A stretch of 64,000 nt of DNA from Candidatus Hadarchaeum sp. GTDB taxonomy: Archaea; Hadarchaeota; Hadarchaeia; Hadarchaeales; Hadarchaeaceae. The translations under genes were made by a program, and so were the position numbers. This document shows, in pieces, positions 57,866 through 64,000 of the stretch; positions within the stretch are counted from its first letter, which is position 1; each line of letters begins with the position of its first letter. The stretch covers positions 622-64,621 of the forward strand of contig DYFS01000002.1 of NCBI GenBank assembly GCA_020725055.1, given 5' to 3'. The notes below the pieces were generated by a model that saw nothing but the letters and a program-made list of their open reading frames with translations, was not told the DNA's origin and did not search any database.

Positions 57866-58363
57866 ATGTTAAGGATAAGAATGAAGAAGTTGGACAAAGA
57901 AATACTGCTTCAACTGATAGAAGACAGCGAGCAACCCACATATCAAATAGCAAAAAAAGTCGGGACCACCAGGCAAACCGTCGCCAAAAAAATCGCTCAA
58001 TTCAAAGAAGCAGGGATAATCAGTTCATTCGTACCCAAGCTGAATCCGGAGAAGTTCGGCCTAGCCACGAAGGCATATGTGTTTCTACGTGAGGATCCGC
58101 GAACAGAGCTCAGAAGGAAAAACGAGGATGCCATCAAGAAGTTTCACGAGGTCTCCGGGTTCTACCGCCTCTTCGGCAGATACAGCGCAATCCTAGAAGT
58201 CAGGGTGAGGGGCAGCAAGGAGCTGACAAACCTGGTTAAGCGAATCCATGGCCTGAGGGGGGTGAGGGAAACCGAGACATTCATAGTTCACAGCTCGGTG
58301 AAAGACATGCCCGAGGCGCCATTTGTGCAAATTTTGAAATTAGGAGCTAAAACACCCGGCTAG
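57866..58363 (+). CDS. Lrp/AsnC-family transcriptional regulator
   Basis: An N-terminal HTH (LDKEILLQLIEDSEQPTYQIAKKVGTTRQTVAKKI) is followed by a RAM domain. Confidence 0.8.
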   Translation: MLRIRMKKLDKEILLQLIEDSEQPTYQIAKKVGTTRQTVAKKIAQFKEAGIISSFVPKLNPEKFGLATKAYVFLREDPRTELRRKNEDAIKKFHEVSGFYRLFGRYSAILEVRVRGSKELTNLVKRIHGLRGVRETETFIVHSSVKDMPEAPFVQILKLGAKTPG

Positions 58364-59121
58364 GTGAGGTCGCCACACGCGCAAAAAACCTCGTGCACGA
58401 TGTCGTAGAGCTCCCGCATCCCCTCGCCAGTTTTTGCGCTCGCCTTCACCACCCTGGCAGCGGGCAGAAGATCCGGCAACACCCTCGATAACCCTAACGT
58501 AAGGTCTATCATCACCCCCGAGCTTTCCTTCACCACTCGCTCCTTCAGAAGCTCTGCGTCTGCTAGCATGCGGTCGATTTCAGCCAGCTTGCCTTGGGCC
58601 AGATCTATCTTGTTCAAGACACTGATGGCAGGAACCCCCAGCCTGAGCCCTATCGATAGCCCAAGCAAACGTGTAAACACGAGCCCAGTCGCTTTCGCTG
58701 CGACCTCTGCGTCTGTCAGGAAGAGCGAGATTGTCACCCCCTCCATGAGCTTCGCTATCTCGGGTCCACCATGAAAGAGAAAAACTTCCATCTGCCCTGG
58801 GGTATCGATGAGCCTGATGTCGGCTTCGATCTCATTGATCTGCTTCGAAAATTCCCCCGCCCTCTGCTCTAGCATCTCAGAAGCGCGGACCATAGCCCCG
58901 TTCGGCCCGAGACTCTCATCGCGCATTATCTGAGCAATGGTGAAGTAGTCACGGATGTCGAAGTCCGGCTCAAACGGAACGAAGTCGCACCCGGGGTCGA
59001 GGTTGATGTAGGCCACCTTTTGGTCGGTGTTTTGTTCGATCCACTTGCCGAAGGTTGCCGTCAGCGCACTCTTCCCAGCACCAGCCGTGCCTAATACAAT
59101 CAGGTTGAGTGGGCGTGGCAT
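58360..59121 (-). CDS. GPN-loop GTPase (PAB0955/XAB1 family)
   Basis: LIVLGTAGAGKSALT is a P-loop. IDTPGQMEVF and NKIDL are also present. Confidence 0.75.
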   Translation of the reverse strand: MPRPLNLIVLGTAGAGKSALTATFGKWIEQNTDQKVAYINLDPGCDFVPFEPDFDIRDYFTIAQIMRDESLGPNGAMVRASEMLEQRAGEFSKQINEIEADIRLIDTPGQMEVFLFHGGPEIAKLMEGVTISLFLTDAEVAAKATGLVFTRLLGLSIGLRLGVPAISVLNKIDLAQGKLAEIDRMLADAELLKERVVKESSGVMIDLTLGLSRVLPDLLPAARVVKASAKTGEGMRELYDIVHEVFCACGDLT

Positions 59122-59125
59122 GCTT

Positions 59126-59626
59126 TCAACTCGTTATGGATTTCATGATTTCAGCGTAAACCTCGGCAGAACATCTCCAGCCGAGCTTTATCATCTCATC
59201 CACCTTCGCTTCCTCCACTGTTAACAGCCCAAGTTTCAAGAGCCTGAGCAGGATGTAACCAGTACCTCTATTAAGGACATCGTTAACGTCTGCCACCCCT
59301 CTAGCTTTGTCTTCATCCACGATAGCGGTTGCGTTCAACTCCTTGGCTAGGGCCAAAACCTCAGCGTCCGCTTTGTATAAGCCGGGGATCCGAGACAAAG
59401 TTTGGAGAAATTTTTTGTTTTTGACTTCTTTGACCTCAAGAACCCTCCTATCGAGAACTTTTTCAATCAGGAGGGCATCAGCCGCTCCTCTTTTCTTACC
59501 CTTAACAACAACCTCTTGGTGTACCGTACCCGGAATAACCTTTTTCTCGGGCAGTTTTTCCAGAAGTTCCAAAACGTTAACTTTAGCCAAGTAAATCAAG
59601 GGGGTCGAGTTTAAGACCAAGGCCAT
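59126..59626 (-). CDS. COG2405/DUF3368 PIN-like predicted nucleic-acid-binding protein (putative toxin)
   Basis: 166 aa. Starts MALVLNSTPLIYLAKVNVLELL, a PIN-like first strand. It is paired with the upstream UPF0175 gene. Confidence 0.45.
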   Translation of the reverse strand: MALVLNSTPLIYLAKVNVLELLEKLPEKKVIPGTVHQEVVVKGKKRGAADALLIEKVLDRRVLEVKEVKNKKFLQTLSRIPGLYKADAEVLALAKELNATAIVDEDKARGVADVNDVLNRGTGYILLRLLKLGLLTVEEAKVDEMIKLGWRCSAEVYAEIMKSITS

Positions 59627-59629
59627 GTG

Positions 59630-59932
59630 CTATTCCGCCGCAGCCTTTATGTCTGCCCTGATTTTTTCAACCGATTTTATCCACGTTACACCGGAACGCC
59701 TCACCAAATCCGCAAAACTCCACACATCCACGCCGGCGATCTCTGCGGCCTTTGTAAACGTGACTTCTCCCCGCTCAAGCAGCTCGAGGGCCTTTTTTTG
59801 TTTCCATTCCTGTAGCCCTGTCCAGAGGAGTTTCCTTACTGCAGCCGACTTCTCTAATTTTTCAGCCTGCATGAACTCCTCCACTCCTTCCTCGAGCTCT
59901 TTGGGTATTCTAGCCGATATAGCCTCCGTCAT
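59630..59932 (-). CDS. UPF0175-family small protein (putative antitoxin partner of the COG2405 protein)
   Basis: GEVTFTKAAEIAGVDVWSFADLVRRSGV matches the UPF0175 signature (..LGKAAELAG.S.WEF..LL...GI). It ends 4 nt before the COG2405 gene. Confidence 0.45.
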   Translation of the reverse strand: MTEAISARIPKELEEGVEEFMQAEKLEKSAAVRKLLWTGLQEWKQKKALELLERGEVTFTKAAEIAGVDVWSFADLVRRSGVTWIKSVEKIRADIKAAAE

Positions 59933-60037
59933 GCCAATTCCGTATTTATTTGTATACAGTTTACACATAAGCTTTGCTGGCCCTCGCCCGAGCCAGCGGT
60001 GCCTAGCCACAATTAGGTTGAACGAGGGGGCTCCACA

Positions 60038-60394
60038 TCATTTTTTACGAGTGCCCCACGCTCGGAATCCTGCCGCAACCGTCAGAATACCAATCAACAC
60101 GACAAACCCCGCCAAGGCCGCGATAACTGAGATCCTAGCGCTCAGAAACCACAACGCTCCTCCACCAAGCATTATGGCTCCCCAGATTCCCACGACGAAT
60201 GCCCCCATCTCGTATTTTTCTGGACTTGCGTGTTTTATAGCCGCTAAAATGATGGCCCAGATCCCGTACAAGACGGCGACGAGCGGCACCGTTTCCCACG
60301 GCGTTATGAGGTTAGCTGCGTAAGCAAACCCTGCCACGCCACATATCGCTAGGAAAACTCCGAATGAAATTGCACCGATTGGTCTTTTTACCAT
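60038..60394 (-). CDS. Small four-TM membrane protein, function unknown
   Basis: 118 aa with four hydrophobic helices. Divergent from the Spo0M-like operon. Confidence 0.4.
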   Translation of the reverse strand: MVKRPIGAISFGVFLAICGVAGFAYAANLITPWETVPLVAVLYGIWAIILAAIKHASPEKYEMGAFVVGIWGAIMLGGGALWFLSARISVIAALAGFVVLIGILTVAAGFRAWGTRKK

Positions 60395-60465
60395 TTACCC
60401 CACAGATACAGAAATGCAAGACAACCTTTTTAAAGTTCCGAACCACGTTATGACTGAGGGAGACA

Positions 60466-61059
60466 TTGGGATTTTTCAAGAGGCTGAATCCAATAAATGC
60501 CAAAGTCTCCGTTCTCCTCGATAAATCGGCATTTGCTGAGAGAGAGCCGGTTACTGGTCGTTTGGTTTTGGATTGTGATGAAGACGTTCGCGCCGATGAA
60601 ATCAGGCTCGAAATCCGGATAACGGAAACTGGTTACAGCTACGGTGGCCCATCTGTAAGCGTGGGAGGGATCACTATATCGGGTCGCTCGCGACCCCCAG
60701 AGAGGCATGTGATACGGAGGCATGCAGAAGATGTTAAGCTATCGGGTTCGCTTGATCTCTACAAGGGTTATAAGGGAGAGTTTCCGTTTTCGGTGAGCAT
60801 ACCCCCGATAGTTCCCACGATGCCGAGCGGAGCAATCGAACGAAAGATCAAAGGAGTGGTGGCAGCGAAGGGGCGACCGGACAAGACCCAAGAAATTAAC
60901 GTTAACATCATGCCAGGTTATGCCCCAGGAGCTGCACCAGCGCCGTCTAGGGAGGTCGTAGTCAAGGAGATCGTCAAAGTGCCGTGCAAGTACTGCGGTG
61001 CCCTTATACCGGTAGAAGCCGACAGATGCTCAACTTGTGGGGCCCAGCTCAGGAGATAA
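60466..61059 (+). CDS. Spo0M-like (prokaryotic arrestin-like) protein with a C-terminal CxxC...CxxC zinc ribbon
   Basis: The Spo0M-type N-terminus reads MGFFKRLNPINAKVSVLLDKS...GRLVLDCDEDVRADEIRLEIR. The C-terminus is CKYCGALIPVEADRCSTCG. Confidence 0.5.
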   Translation: MGFFKRLNPINAKVSVLLDKSAFAEREPVTGRLVLDCDEDVRADEIRLEIRITETGYSYGGPSVSVGGITISGRSRPPERHVIRRHAEDVKLSGSLDLYKGYKGEFPFSVSIPPIVPTMPSGAIERKIKGVVAAKGRPDKTQEINVNIMPGYAPGAAPAPSREVVVKEIVKVPCKYCGALIPVEADRCSTCGAQLRR

Positions 61060-61063
61060 AAAA

Positions 61064-61600
61064 ATGGCGAGAGAAGTACCTCTGAAAAAAGTCGAACGCG
61101 AGACGGCCCTTCTCGAAAAAATCTCGTTGGCGATTCCGGGATTCAGGGGGTACAAATTGAAGGAGATGCGAAGGGAGGCAGATAAGCTCATAAGGGACCA
61201 CTTATACCGAAGGCTCGTGGAGGCAAAATCGAGCATGAAGGAAATATTCCAGCGTTTAGTCATCAACAAACTCATGGATGTTTTGGAAGATACAGATCGA
61301 TTGATCGCCAAGTTCGACAGGGTGGCGGAGCTGATAAACCACGCGCCCTACGGGTACAGCGGATTTTTCAGCGCTGTCAAGATCGAAGAAGATGATCTCG
61401 AAAACATGATTGACTTTGACTTGAAACTTGTCGGCAGCGTCAAAGGGATAGAGGCGAAGGTCAAGCAACTCAGAAGCGAAGTCATGAGTGGAAAGTTCGA
61501 AAATGTGAGGACCCACGTGGATGACATCCGCGGGTCAATAGAAGACTTGGAAAACACATTTAACGAGAGAAAAGAAGTGATAATGGGGGTGCAGTTCTAA
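61064..61600 (+). CDS. All-helical coiled-coil protein, function unknown (PspA/ESCRT-III-like not established)
   Basis: About 178 aa from MAREVPLKK with heptad-like periodicity throughout. It starts 5 nt after the Spo0M-like stop, and its own stop overlaps the next start. Confidence 0.35.
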   Translation: MAREVPLKKVERETALLEKISLAIPGFRGYKLKEMRREADKLIRDHLYRRLVEAKSSMKEIFQRLVINKLMDVLEDTDRLIAKFDRVAELINHAPYGYSGFFSAVKIEEDDLENMIDFDLKLVGSVKGIEAKVKQLRSEVMSGKFENVRTHVDDIRGSIEDLENTFNERKEVIMGVQF

Positions 61601-62574
61601 TGCCACAGGTCATAGGGTGGACGAATCCGGGAGCGAACGACATCGTTTGGAAATACCCCGATGAGAACATAATGTGGGGCGCCCAGTTGATAGTCCGGGA
61701 GATGGAGGCAGCCGTTTTCTTCAGGGATGGAAAGGCCTATGACGTGTTCGGGCCCGGAAGGCACACTTTGACGACGAGGAATTTGACCCTGCTCACGAAG
61801 GTCCTCACACGGATAGCGGGGTACAAAGAGACGCCGTTCAAGTCGATGGTTGTGTTTGTGTCTACTAAGCAGTTTGACGGGAAATACGGGATGAGGGCCC
61901 AGACCACCGAGCTCGCACCCCTGATGGCCCACGGCTCATTCTGGTTCAAGATCGAAAATCCACAGCTCTTCGTGAACGAGGTCGTGGGCGGACAAGGCGC
62001 ATTTCACACGATCGATGTCAACGAGTTCCTGAGAGGCTTCGTGAACGAGAAAATGATCGACGAACTTTCCCAGTACGACTTGCTCACGGTATTCACAAGG
62101 CTTGATGAAACTTCTATGGTCGTCAAGGCGCACATCTTGGATGCTTTCAAGAGGCTGGGGATGGAACTCGTAGACCTCAAGTTTGAAGGGATAGATACAG
62201 AACCCGTGTACAGAGAGAGGTTGTTCTGGATTAAAGCCGGAAGAGCTGCACCAACAGAGGTCCTCAGGATGGAAACGGTGAAGGAGTCGGCGAAGGAGCT
62301 CGGCAAGTCCCAGGGGGCCGGCCTCGGGGCCGGGATGATGATAATCCCGCCGATGTTCCAGCAGCCAGCCGCTCCTGCAGCGCCAGCGGTAGCATTGGTC
62401 ATCTGCGCGAAATGTAATGCACAAGTCCCAGCAACTTCAAGGTTCTGCCCGAGTTGTGGCATTGCGATTGTTGCACCAGCCGCCCCAACTCAAACTAAGA
62501 AATGCTCAAAGTGCGGGCAAGAGGTTGCGGCTGAAGCCAAGTTCTGCCCAAGTTGCGGGAAGAAAATACCATAG
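61600..62574 (+). CDS. SPFH/band-7-like protein with a C-terminal double zinc ribbon (COG4260-like)
   Basis: The N-terminal domain resembles the SPFH-with-Zn-ribbon family. The C-terminus carries two CxxC-x10-CPSCG ribbons (CAKCNAQVPATSRFCPSCG; CSKCGQEVAAEAKFCPSCG) after a low-complexity linker. Confidence 0.45.
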   Translation: MPQVIGWTNPGANDIVWKYPDENIMWGAQLIVREMEAAVFFRDGKAYDVFGPGRHTLTTRNLTLLTKVLTRIAGYKETPFKSMVVFVSTKQFDGKYGMRAQTTELAPLMAHGSFWFKIENPQLFVNEVVGGQGAFHTIDVNEFLRGFVNEKMIDELSQYDLLTVFTRLDETSMVVKAHILDAFKRLGMELVDLKFEGIDTEPVYRERLFWIKAGRAAPTEVLRMETVKESAKELGKSQGAGLGAGMMIIPPMFQQPAAPAAPAVALVICAKCNAQVPATSRFCPSCGIAIVAPAAPTQTKKCSKCGQEVAAEAKFCPSCGKKIP

Positions 62575-62688
62575 GTCGCCGAAAAGCGCTAGAGCTCTTT
62601 TACCATGTAGGGCCGTGCCTGCAAACACGATGATTCTATGCACATCGAGCTTCAGTGCACCGTGTTCGTCACGGTGACATCACTCCCG

Positions 62689-63096
62689 CTAGCTTATCCT
62701 CTCCACCAACCCATCGAAGCCGGTGTCGAAACTCGCGATTCTCCCTATCCTATTTTTCTCAACGAGTGCAAGCGAGGTGCAGTCCGTGAAGCTCATGGGT
62801 CTTTCCTTGAGCGACTTGAACCGCTCCCATGCCGCGTCGAAGACCTCTTCGGAGACCCGCAACTTCCCTATCCTAGGCGAACTCAAGATGTATTCTCCAA
62901 CGTCGATCGCGAGTTCGAGCCTTTTCGTTCTAGCCAAAGCTGTGGTTATCGCTTCATCTATCACGTAATCCGAGGTATAGATAACGCCGAATTCAGCCCG
63001 GAGGATGCGCGCCATCAGCTCCTTGGCCCTTCGATGATATCTATCTGCTGCGTTTCTCAGCGCGATGAAGACCCCCGTATCAACAAAGACAGACAA
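62689..63096 (-). CDS. vapC: VapC-type PIN-domain toxin
   Basis: MSVFVDTGVFIAL...FTDCTSLAL...SFD carries the PIN acidic residues. 135 aa. Confidence 0.7.
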   Translation of the reverse strand: MSVFVDTGVFIALRNAADRYHRRAKELMARILRAEFGVIYTSDYVIDEAITTALARTKRLELAIDVGEYILSSPRIGKLRVSEEVFDAAWERFKSLKERPMSFTDCTSLALVEKNRIGRIASFDTGFDGLVERIS

Positions 63097-63387
63097 TTAT
63101 CCACCGTAAACGTATTCGTCTATCTTCTCGGATGCGTCTTTGACTCCCCAATTTTTCGGCTTCTGGAGCATTTTCCAAGCTGGGTCCTCCTCCAAGGGCG
63201 GCAGTTCCTCAAGCTTCTCGGCGAACTTCTCGCACTCGAGAGCGTGATCCACCATCATCCCTAAGGCTTTTTGCATCGGGATTTTCTCGCCCCGTTTGAT
63301 CAGACGTGAGGCGAGGTACCTCTCGAGCTTCTGCTTGTGCTCCTCATCAATTTTCACGGTTGTTGCCACTTTTCCACCAGTATACAA
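63097..63387 (-). CDS. vapB: VapB-type antitoxin (adjacent to vapC)
   Basis: 96 aa, directly upstream of vapC and end-to-end with it. Its N-terminus is TVKIDEEHKQKLERYL. Confidence 0.5.
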   Translation of the reverse strand: MYTGGKVATTVKIDEEHKQKLERYLASRLIKRGEKIPMQKALGMMVDHALECEKFAEKLEELPPLEEDPAWKMLQKPKNWGVKDASEKIDEYVYGG

Positions 63388-63423
63388 GTTTCTTTTTCTA
63401 CTTATAAACCTTGTGGAGCCGAG

Positions 63424-64000
63424 TCAGCTCAGCTCCTTCACCATGTAGGGCCCCTCACGCCCGTAACCGAACCGCCTGTAGTACTCCCGAGCCCCTATCC
63501 CCGCGAGCACGATGACCCTGCACGCATCGAACTCCTCGCGTGAAACCCGCTCCGCCTCCTCGAGCAACCTTGCGCCGTAGCCGCGGTGTTGCCAAGCGGA
63601 AGTGGGGGCTTCCGCCCGACCTCCAACCCGAACGAGCGGCCCGTAAACGTGTAGCTCCCGCACCAGCGTTGCCCGCGCCGCCTTAGCCTCTGGTCGGTGG
63701 GCCTTCTCCGATGGGTACCTGAGCCTGAGCAGCCCGATCAAGATATCCTGCTTCACATCCTCAAAAGAAAGGAAGAGCTCTTCCCCTCCGGAGGCGCGAT
63801 ATCTCTCGGTCACTAGCTTTACATCATCTGGGTTCGGATCTGCCCCCTGCTCACGCTTTATATGCCCGACCTCGCGGCAGCGGATGCACCGGCAGCGGGC
63901 ACCCTCATTTCTCAGTTTTTCCTTGACTAAAGCCCGTAGGTCTCCTCGCCTGACTCCTTCGACTATCAGGTTTGATGGGATATCTCTCTGAATGCGTTGA
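63424..64000 (-). CDS. elp3: Elongator protein 3 (Elp3) homologue, C-terminal GNAT half only. The gene continues beyond the window end.
   Basis: The reverse frame stays open to position 64000 (...CRCIRCREVGHIKREQGADPNPDDVKLVTERYRASGGEELFLS...). It ends with WQHRGYGARLLEEAE...RRFGYGREGPYMVKELS, the Elp3 C-terminal signature. Confidence 0.6.
   Translation of the reverse strand, partial: QRIQRDIPSNLIVEGVRRGDLRALVKEKLRNEGARCRCIRCREVGHIKREQGADPNPDDVKLVTERYRASGGEELFLSFEDVKQDILIGLLRLRYPSEKAHRPEAKAARATLVRELHVYGPLVRVGGRAEAPTSAWQHRGYGARLLEEAERVSREEFDACRVIVLAGIGAREYYRRFGYGREGPYMVKELS

Follow-up and report, generated by a model that had tools for sequence, protein, structure and literature searches.

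A conserved SPFH module with an all-helical partner family in Candidatus Hadarchaeum, shared with other archaea and with bacteria

In a 64,000-nucleotide stretch of DNA from Candidatus Hadarchaeum sp. (contig DYFS01000002.1, positions 622 to 64,621; the window hereafter) we analyzed a group of genes that an initial annotation had described as a three-gene operon bracketed by two toxin-antitoxin (TA) pairs. Three of these genes are encoded on the forward strand: g1 (60466..61059, 197 amino acids) specifies an arrestin-fold protein with a zinc ribbon, g2 (61064..61600, 178 amino acids) an all-helical protein, and g3 (61600..62574, 324 amino acids) an SPFH protein with two zinc ribbons. A fourth gene, tm118 (60038..60394, reverse strand, 118 amino acids), is divergent from g1. 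We found that tm118, g1, g2, and g3 constitute a conserved gene set whose products are an integral membrane protein and three proteins that are soluble, and that its invariant core, in both archaea and bacteria, is the translationally coupled pair g2 and g3. We have high confidence that these genes represent a conserved membrane-associated SPFH module, whereas our confidence in the specific mechanism is moderate to low. The explanation that we favor overall, and that we judge probable if only modestly so, is that of an SPFH scaffold module that resides on the chromosome, is inherited vertically, associates with the membrane, comprises four genes here, and operates by the mechanism proposed below.

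The neighborhood of g2 was compared across a set of 80 fetched genome loci that were searched with the proteins of the window (tblastn criterion). A g3-type gene was present directly 3′ of g2 in 80 of the 81 loci with room for it, with a median spacer of 4 nucleotides, and in the 81st locus it was found 81 nucleotides downstream of g2. The pairing occurs in Hadarchaeota, Bathyarchaeia, Nitrososphaerales, and Chloroflexi-type bacteria, and this adjacency is far beyond chance. In the first contexts that we obtained (from Nitrososphaerales and two metagenome contigs) g2 was preceded by the gene for a protein of ~250 amino acids with an N-terminal zinc ribbon and followed by a gene encoding a Band_7_1 domain together with a DZR zinc ribbon. 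The gene for the N-terminal zinc-ribbon protein was directly 5′ of g2 in 58 of 78 loci, and in 55 of the 77 loci with room a homolog of tm118 was located just 3′ of the SPFH gene and on its strand. In every Hadarchaeota-type locus (that is, the window and the loci designated L006-L008, L093, L094, and L095-L102) tm118 is divergent and upstream, and the gene for the arrestin-fold zinc-ribbon protein precedes g2. Unbiased all-against-all clustering of the open reading frames (ORFs) of 92 loci recovered g2 in 92, the SPFH gene in 87, tm118 in 68, and the N-terminal zinc-ribbon protein in 67, and the remaining clusters represented lineage synteny or antisense shadow ORFs. Because tm118 is among the four widely shared families, the module has four genes here. 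Thus, in line with the initial annotation, the genes behave as one conserved functional unit and not as three unrelated housekeeping genes, although the three-gene set of that annotation was incomplete in that it left out the divergent gene for a protein with four transmembrane (TM) segments.

Loci containing relatives of P0250, a distant member of the g2 family, extend this arrangement further into bacteria. A dyad of g2 and an SPFH gene was present in 7 of 7 such bacterial loci, two of which are named Anaerolineae and one 'bacterium', and in 6 of the 7 a Band_7_1 gene, usually one with zinc ribbons, directly followed the g2 relative. (Note that at L090:4521-4985 an ORF of 154 amino acids, with no Pfam match, is situated between the g2 and SPFH genes.) Four further loci, L015, L038, L062, and L071, carry the labels Nitrospirales, Sulfotelmatobacter, 'bacterium', and Limnocylindrales, respectively, and contain a g2 that is 44-51% identical to that of the window followed by an SPFH gene; L038 has the full set of zinc-ribbon protein, g2, SPFH protein, and tm118, and L071 has tm118 without the zinc-ribbon protein. 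It may be that these contigs are archaeal and were binned wrongly, in which case they would not be bacterial occurrences.

The ORF map placed the three co-oriented genes between 60466 and 62574, as first described. The TTG start of g1 matches its homologs, which begin with MGFF or MGLF at the same codon, and the ATG start of g2 at 61064 agrees with that of its homologs (MARE...). Direct reading of the junctions placed the TAA stop codon of g1 at 61057-61059, leaving a gap of 4 nucleotides before g2 and not the 5 originally given, and confirmed the overlap of a single nucleotide that had been reported between g2 and g3: the TAA of g2 (61598-61600) shares one nucleotide with the ATG of g3 at 61600 (TAATG). 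Shine-Dalgarno-like motifs are present at both junctions, with AGGAGA located within the 3′ end of g1, before g2, and a G-rich stretch just 5′ of the g2/g3 overlap. The spacer of 71 bp that separates tm118 from g1 (60395..60465) contains an A/T box, TTTTTAAA (60427-60434), ~32 nucleotides before the start of g1, and a purine-rich stretch, GAGGGAGA (60456-60463); these elements are a putative archaeal TATA box and a putative ribosome-binding site, respectively. In keeping with this assignment, an A/T box (TTTTTAAA, TTTATAA, or TTATATA) and a G-rich stretch occur at the same places in 10 Hadarchaeota-type loci. (A scan for sigma-70 promoters and intrinsic terminators revealed no enrichment, but note that these models are not applicable to archaea.)

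The product of g3 had been read as an SPFH protein with a double zinc ribbon, and profile matches to PF13421, DZR, and Zn_Ribbon_1 bear this out. Residues 16-208 form a Band_7_1 (YdjI/COG4260-type) SPFH domain that scored 106.6 bits against PF13421 (cut-off 24; E=1.8e-30; profile positions 1-193 of 211) and 58 bits against PF01145 (Band_7; E=1.4e-15). Two zinc ribbons follow at the C-terminus (residues ~266-290 and ~298-323; DZR, E=7e-11; Zn_Ribbon_1, E=1e-14 in two stretches), preceded by a linker rich in Gly, Ala, and Pro. Just ~30-60 residues separate the SPFH domain from the ribbons, and no hydrophobic segment of g3 passed the TM threshold. As in the classical SPFH operons (HflK/C-FtsH, stomatin-NfeD, and flotillin-YqiJ/YuaF), an SPFH gene is tightly coupled here to a dedicated partner gene, and a function in association with the membrane would be expected. 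However, g3 differs from the SPFH proteins of those operons in that it lacks a TM or hairpin anchor and that the helical segment following its SPFH domain is short, and its partner g2 is neither an NfeD-type OB-fold protein nor a protease.

HflK/C regulates FtsH, stomatin works with NfeD, and Spo0M of Bacillus subtilis, whose fold g1 shares, has been reported to be a substrate of FtsH. We considered whether the module might function in the quality control of membrane proteins, with the SPFH assembly corralling or regulating a membrane protease and the arrestin-like and zinc-ribbon proteins serving as substrate adaptors. Pairing with a protease is the best-established function of SPFH proteins (PMC10936438), and a gene for an M48 (HtpX-type) peptidase divergently adjoins the module, just upstream, in 11 loci (among them L001:4106-5134 and L004:3228-5051, both reverse strand); a rhomboid gene is present too in L004, and a gene for an Rce1-like protease is found 3′ of the module in L091. 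However, protease neighbors occur in just ~12% of the loci and in neither the window nor any Hadarchaeota-type locus, the conserved core includes no protease, and g3 is without the TM anchor and the long coiled coil of cage-forming SPFH proteins. We therefore regard a role in quality control as unlikely.

The middle protein, g2, had been described as an all-helical coiled coil. It is all-helical in its AlphaFold2 model of the monomer (predicted local distance difference test (pLDDT) score of 81.7), but the five helices pack as a compact bundle and do not form a long coiled coil. No membrane segment was detected in g2, and a Pfam scan assigned it to no family and returned nothing meaningful (Snf7, E=0.063). 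An exhaustive HMMER profile search defined the g2 family as 1,845 clusters at 50% identity (E<=1e-3), and when each GTDB species was represented by a single genome the family was found in at least 580 of them. None of the 604 close-to-moderate homologs of g2 carries a Pfam domain. Two signature motifs, PGFRGYKxKExRREADK and NHAxYGYxGFF, characterize the family, and seven residues, P25, Y30, R37, D40, R44, D119, and R169, are invariant across 115 diverse members. The sole curated model that detects g2 is NCBIfam NF047596 (the LIMLP_15305 family of Leptospira; E=1e-20), and diverse family members match it with E values of 1e-8 to 1e-17. Note that these matches score 35-74 bits, far below the 210-bit equivalog cut-off, which makes the g2 family a distant relative of the Leptospira family and not a member of it. 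LIMLP_15305 appears in the Leptospira literature as just a locus tag in a table of small RNAs, and in a limited literature search we found no paper on the g2 family, on its coupling to Band_7_1 genes, or on a gene link between arrestin/Spo0M and SPFH proteins.

It had been suggested that g2 be checked against PspA, Vipp1, and ESCRT-III. When this was done no match was obtained by profile or by structure, and nothing spoke for these identities. In Pfam searches of 115 family members (E<=1) neither Snf7 nor PspA_IM30 was among the top 25 families, all of which were generic coiled-coil families. Searches of all PDB sequences with family profiles returned no ESCRT-III, PspA, or Vipp1 protein, and a Foldseek search with the g2 model returned nothing at E<=0.001, so that the ESCRT-III fold, with its long alpha1-alpha2 hairpin and alpha3-alpha5 packing, was not recovered. 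Alignment of the family profile with E. coli PspA by hhalign yielded a probability of 0.35%. One reading of g2 is nevertheless that it is a cryptic and highly diverged remodeling polymer of the ESCRT-III/PspA type that is recruited by the SPFH protein, which would make the module a repair system resembling ESCRT or PSP (for phage shock protein) systems. Its helical nature would suit such a reading and a model of the monomer leaves room for an open polymer of the ESCRT-III kind, but the searches just described lend it no support, and we consider it very improbable.

A few rare representatives of the g2 family are fusion proteins. In P0199 the g2 domain is joined to an N-terminal zinc ribbon through a Pro/Thr-rich linker, in P0242 it is joined to a C-terminal DUF4178 domain, and the representatives P0242, P0199, P0261, and P0266 include fusions to low-complexity tails of 200-250 residues that are rich in Pro, Gly, and Gln. 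DUF4178 is a beta-rich domain reported from PspA/polyamine operons (Ravi et al., PMC11237479).

The assignment of g1 as an arrestin-like (Spo0M) protein with a zinc ribbon was upheld by structure prediction and structure search, which agree that it has one lobe and not two. In this protein an N-terminal beta-sandwich of the arrestin-N/Spo0M type (residues ~10-150) is connected by a disordered linker to a zinc ribbon at the C-terminus. Its Pfam matches are to Arrestin_N (weak; E=1e-3, below the cut-off) and to Zn_Ribbon_1, and many of its 43 database homologs, which come from Hadarchaeota and Bathyarchaeia, have precomputed matches to PF00339 (Arrestin_N) or PF07070 (Spo0M). The AlphaFold2 model (pLDDT 82.6) contains a single beta-sandwich, a linker at residues 153-167 with pLDDT <50, and a small ribbon. 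A Foldseek search of the PDB with this model gave 148 matches at E<=0.001, headed by the N-terminal domains of TXNIP and ARRDC3 and by B. subtilis Spo0M (E ~2e-8). The N-terminal domain of g1 thus superposes on the fold shared by Spo0M, the alpha-arrestins (ARRDC, TXNIP), and Vps26, with template modeling scores against TXNIP-N, ARRDC3-N, and Spo0M of ~0.5 for the query and ~0.7 for the target. Whereas arrestins have two beta-sandwich lobes, the model of g1 shows one lobe (~150 amino acids), without the two-lobe architecture, followed by the zinc ribbon. No TM segment was found in g1 by a Kyte-Doolittle scan. The four ribbon cysteines of g1 (C174, C177, C188, and C191) are invariant in 24 homologs; together with the DZR and Zn_Ribbon_1 matches of g3, this indicates that the zinc ribbons are real and are not frame artifacts.

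The association of g1 with g2 and g3 was examined in a metagenome scan of the g1 family that covered 80 loci. Both g2 and the SPFH gene are present in each of the seven Hadarchaeota-type loci with room, and in the wider g1 family the two genes occur within 4 kb in 10 of 27 loci whose flanks measure at least 2 kb on either side. The arrangements differ: the genes are divergent in L131 and convergent in L144, and in L148 g1 is downstream of the SPFH gene. The paralogs of g2 and of the SPFH protein at the wider g1 loci are themselves divergent in sequence (26-37% and 35-54% identity, respectively), and some of these loci also carry tm118 and the ~250-amino-acid zinc-ribbon protein. That the linkage recurs although the arrangement varies argues that the g1 family is functionally tied to g2 together with the SPFH protein. 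A second, divergent pair, g2′ and SPFH′, is seen at L131:2239-5832 and also in L128, L136, L150, L165, and L167; g2′ is ~26-31% and SPFH′ ~35-39% identical to the proteins of the window, and the pair is divergent from a gene for a distant arrestin-fold zinc-ribbon protein. On the other side of the pair are tm118 and the ~250-amino-acid zinc-ribbon protein, so that all five component types are found together in a single locus, which implies that these are paralogous systems. The possibility that g1 is a homolog of the ~250-amino-acid zinc-ribbon protein of Bathyarchaeia was rejected, as BLASTP aligned the zinc-ribbon motifs only, and because the two proteins co-occur (in L131, for example) g1 is not simply a replacement for the other. 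Rather, g1 is a lineage-variable adaptor, and the invariant core consists of g2 and g3.

The four predicted TM helices of tm118 correspond to four hydrophobic segments in a Kyte-Doolittle scan. The protein belongs to no Pfam family. Its assignment to YccF, LiaF-TM, or another known family was rejected in the absence of any significant Pfam match, and bacterial YccF-like proteins had no detectable similarity to tm118 in tblastn searches. (Note that weak matches to LiaF-TM, with E>=0.017, were seen in 2 of 21 members of the tm118 family.) In Bacillus, small membrane proteins of the LiaI/LiaF type anchor LiaH, a homolog of PspA.

Genes that accompany the module in a variable fashion nearly all encode zinc-ribbon proteins or small proteins with four TM segments. 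In bacteria these include YccF-type proteins with four TM segments (L087, L089, and L091) and zinc-ribbon proteins with two TM segments and a PCI or winged-helix domain (L087, L089, and L092). A gene of the latter kind is positioned 3′ of the SPFH gene, before an ELP3-type gene, in three Hadarchaeota-type loci (L006:3604-4113, L008:6784-7077, and L094:4535-5080). It is missing from the window, where the corresponding slot (62575-63423) holds a VapBC pair, and L093 has neither; the VapBC insertion may have displaced this accessory gene in the window. At L024:2841-3311 (reverse strand), and in ~30 Bathyarchaeia loci, a PadR-like regulator whose C-terminal extension is rich in Cys is encoded ~2 kb upstream of g2, and the gene for a flavin adenine dinucleotide (FAD) protein of 463-483 amino acids separates it from the module; this proximity may be plain synteny.

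Such genes raise the question of whether the module is a membrane-tethered signaling device in which the SPFH complex releases or sequesters zinc-ribbon and winged-helix/PCI proteins and thereby controls transcription. PadR-type regulators are associated with PSP systems, and the PadR-like gene recurs ~2 kb upstream in 30 Bathyarchaeia loci; likewise, the winged-helix/PCI zinc-ribbon protein accompanies the module in the six archaeal and bacterial loci named above. Moreover, loss of SamI, a B. subtilis protein of the same SPFH type, brings global transcriptional changes (bioRxiv 10.64898/2026.02.06.704340). Yet the window itself is without the winged-helix gene, the PadR-like gene is parted from the module by the unrelated FAD-protein gene, and the invariant core of g2 and g3 contains no DNA-binding domain. 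A signaling device is thus distinctly unlikely in our estimation.

The initial annotation placed a UPF0175/COG2405 pair and a VapBC pair on either side of the trio, and Pfam matches confirmed both placements. On the tm118 side, a PIN-like/DUF3368 gene (59126-59626) and a UPF0175 gene (59630-60010, with a likely start at 59932) are present on the reverse strand; on the other side, also on the reverse strand, a VapC toxin gene (62689-63096; PIN, E=1.4e-13) is abutted by an ORF for a putative antitoxin of 96 amino acids (63097-63387) that ends at the start of vapC and has no family match. Both pairs are flanking insertions outside the module. Beyond the VapBC pair, a GNAT-like ORF (63424-64000, reverse strand) represents the C-terminal portion of an ELP3-type radical-SAM/acetyltransferase; the gene extends beyond the window and is full-length in L006, L093, and L094.

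The bracketing by TA pairs had been taken as a sign of a defense or stress island, with an abortive-infection-like module among the functions proposed for the trio. We compared the window with L093, which is its closest relative (the g2 proteins are 85% identical) and which lies on a contig of 322 kb. The order of genes in L093 is PEPCK-like, AsnC, GPN GTPase, tm118 (reverse strand), arrestin-fold zinc-ribbon protein, g2, SPFH, ELP3 (reverse strand), and helicase. The window shares flanking housekeeping genes with L093, L008, and L094, and in these three loci, which have the same flanks, there is no TA pair on either side of the module. The absence of the TA pairs from these syntenic loci argues that they are insertions specific to this strain or lineage. 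Consistent with this, in a comparison that covered the four TA proteins of the window, none had a homolog in the 87 other loci. Both TA pairs are thus recent insertions that are unrelated to the module, and their position on either side of it says nothing about its function.

An anti-virus defense or abortive-infection module residing in a defense island would account for the two TA pairs that flank the module in the window, one of which (PIN-DUF3368/UPF0175) corresponds to PDC-S70, a candidate system in PADLOC (E values of 1e-21 for the toxin and 3e-6 for its partner). This is the sole match of the region to a defense database. In two bacterial loci, TA pairs likewise adjoin or interrupt the module. 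(These pairs, HEPN/MNT, DUF4258 with a partner of 82 amino acids, and DUF2281/PIN, are located at L089:4231-4956 and L092:2091-3324; they could reflect TA-rich genomes, or operon borders could be favored sites of insertion.) However, no model in PADLOC-DB v2 matches g1, g2, g3, or tm118, and the TA pairs are missing at this position in the closest relatives, as they are from every other locus. The neighbors of the module are housekeeping genes (GPN GTPase, AsnC, ELP3, and a Hel308-type helicase), and the gene order is stable across the entire class Bathyarchaeia. Furthermore, a search of 72,556 plasmids and 50,697 phages gave no match to g2, and the local GC content of the module resembles that of its surroundings. 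A defense function is, in our judgment, extremely unlikely, and we conclude that the role of the module is not anti-phage defense. Of the functions first entertained for the trio, a role at the membrane or in stress thus survives as the best reading of the genes, whereas defense and abortive infection do not. The locus also serves as a cautionary case, as flanking TA pairs may be strain-specific insertions and not markers of a defense island.

The known system that the module most invites comparison with is pspA-ydjGHI (samGHI) of B. subtilis. There, YdjI/SamI is soluble, needs YdjG, which has a zinc ribbon at its start, and YdjH for recruitment to the membrane, and then recruits PspA (PMC8581546; bioRxiv 10.64898/2026.02.06.704340; PMC11237479). 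YdjI/SamI stabilizes PspA foci, and its loss alters membrane fluidity and gives rise to constitutive stress signaling (PMC8581546; bioRxiv 10.64898/2026.02.06.704340). Both YdjI/SamI and g3 are Band_7_1-type proteins that lack a TM segment and that have a low-complexity linker and a C-terminal zinc finger (PMC8581546). In both cases the SPFH gene is found together with genes for the membrane proteins it would need for recruitment, and YdjG, like g1 and the ~250-amino-acid zinc-ribbon protein of related loci, begins or ends with a zinc ribbon. Both systems are also chromosomal and of a stress type, and are not mobile.

There are also differences. Whereas the Bacillus system has PspA and the TPM-domain protein YdjH, the locus studied here has the helical g2, with no detectable similarity to PspA; its membrane partner is a small protein with four TM segments, and its adaptor in Hadarchaeota has an arrestin fold. 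The region from 58360 to 63813 encodes ten proteins, none of which matches PspA_IM30, and a TPM-domain (YdjH-type) protein was found neither among these nor when genes were called in 16 related loci. A YdjG-type partner (zinc ribbons, a YpeB/PepSY-like domain, and a TM segment) is absent from the window. In related loci, zinc-ribbon families match the ~250-amino-acid protein in 11 of 11 cases and PepSY matches it weakly in 3 of 11 (E>=0.085), and the protein of L001 has no hydrophobic stretch by eye. Given these weak PepSY matches and the lack of a solved relative, we treat the resemblance of this protein to YdjG as one of architecture. By this comparison the module appears analogous to the PspA-YdjGHI/SamGHI system and not a member of it. 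The 'Meth_adaptin' ESCRT loci (Makarova et al. 2024, PMC10936438) offer a second parallel, in that they too combine an archaeal coiled-coil SPFH protein bearing zinc ribbons with proposed remodeling or adaptor partners. Those loci hold genes for Vps4, ESCRT-III, adaptin-appendage, and GOLD-domain proteins (PMC10936438), none of which was seen around g2 and g3 in the gene calls examined or in the shared ORF clusters.

Since no membrane segment is present in g1, g2, or g3, we reasoned that one or more integral membrane partners probably bring the SPFH protein to the membrane. In the scaffold module that we favor, tm118, together with the winged-helix zinc-ribbon protein with two TM segments where it is present, would anchor the complex at the cytoplasmic face of the membrane, and recruitment of g3 would parallel that of the soluble YdjI/SamI by YdjG and YdjH in B. 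subtilis. The zinc ribbons carried on flexible linkers by g1 and the SPFH protein would mediate contacts during assembly, and g2 would bind the SPFH oligomer stoichiometrically. There g2 might act as an effector or regulator in the place of PspA, or might provide in trans the long helices that g3 lacks. SPFH proteins that form baskets require an extended helical domain, and because g3 has few residues linking its domains we speculate that g2 may supply these helices. The module as a whole would sense or stabilize the stressed membrane, or organize complexes of membrane proteins.

Several points weigh against this explanation. There is no PspA or TPM/YdjH gene at the locus, and the resemblance between the ~250-amino-acid zinc-ribbon protein and YdjG is architectural, as PepSY matches are weak and limited to 3 of 11 members. 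Because g2 has no detectable kinship with PspA, ESCRT-III, or any solved fold, the role assigned to it is a guess, and the Leptospira locus tag is the sole trace of its family in the literature. In the other 17 of the 27 well-flanked loci for arrestin-fold zinc-ribbon proteins there is no g2 or SPFH gene nearby; g1-type proteins thus act in other contexts as well. Finally, any physical contact between the four proteins is deduced solely from the order of their genes, and the function proposed for the module is likewise read from the genes.

SPFH proteins occur in all domains of life, and what they do at the molecular level in prokaryotes is poorly understood. Bacillus is the only setting in which the YdjI/SamI branch has been studied, and there it links PspA to the membrane; our findings tie the same type of SPFH protein to a different and unannotated partner family in many archaea and some bacteria, alongside a recurring set of zinc-ribbon adaptors of which one has an arrestin fold. 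What is new is an SPFH scaffold module with a new obligate partner family, g2, and new adaptors. We also entertained the bolder idea, doubtful at present though by no means negligible, that proteins of the g2 family are membrane effectors of a new, SPFH-coupled class and that the arrestin-fold zinc-ribbon proteins are cargo or membrane adaptors. If this were true, g2 would do the job of PspA/ESCRT-III by means of a different fold, or would complete the SPFH cage in trans, and the module would represent an undescribed prokaryotic arrestin-SPFH machine for organizing membranes that is widespread in Bathyarchaeia, Hadarchaeota, Nitrososphaerales, and Chloroflexi. In either event, the unannotated g2 family gains a functional context, and the recurrence of zinc ribbons suggests that they are the assembly 'glue' of such modules. 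In one survey more than half of the genomes of archaeal lineages were without any PSP protein, and the module described here is a candidate for membrane maintenance in archaeal lineages.

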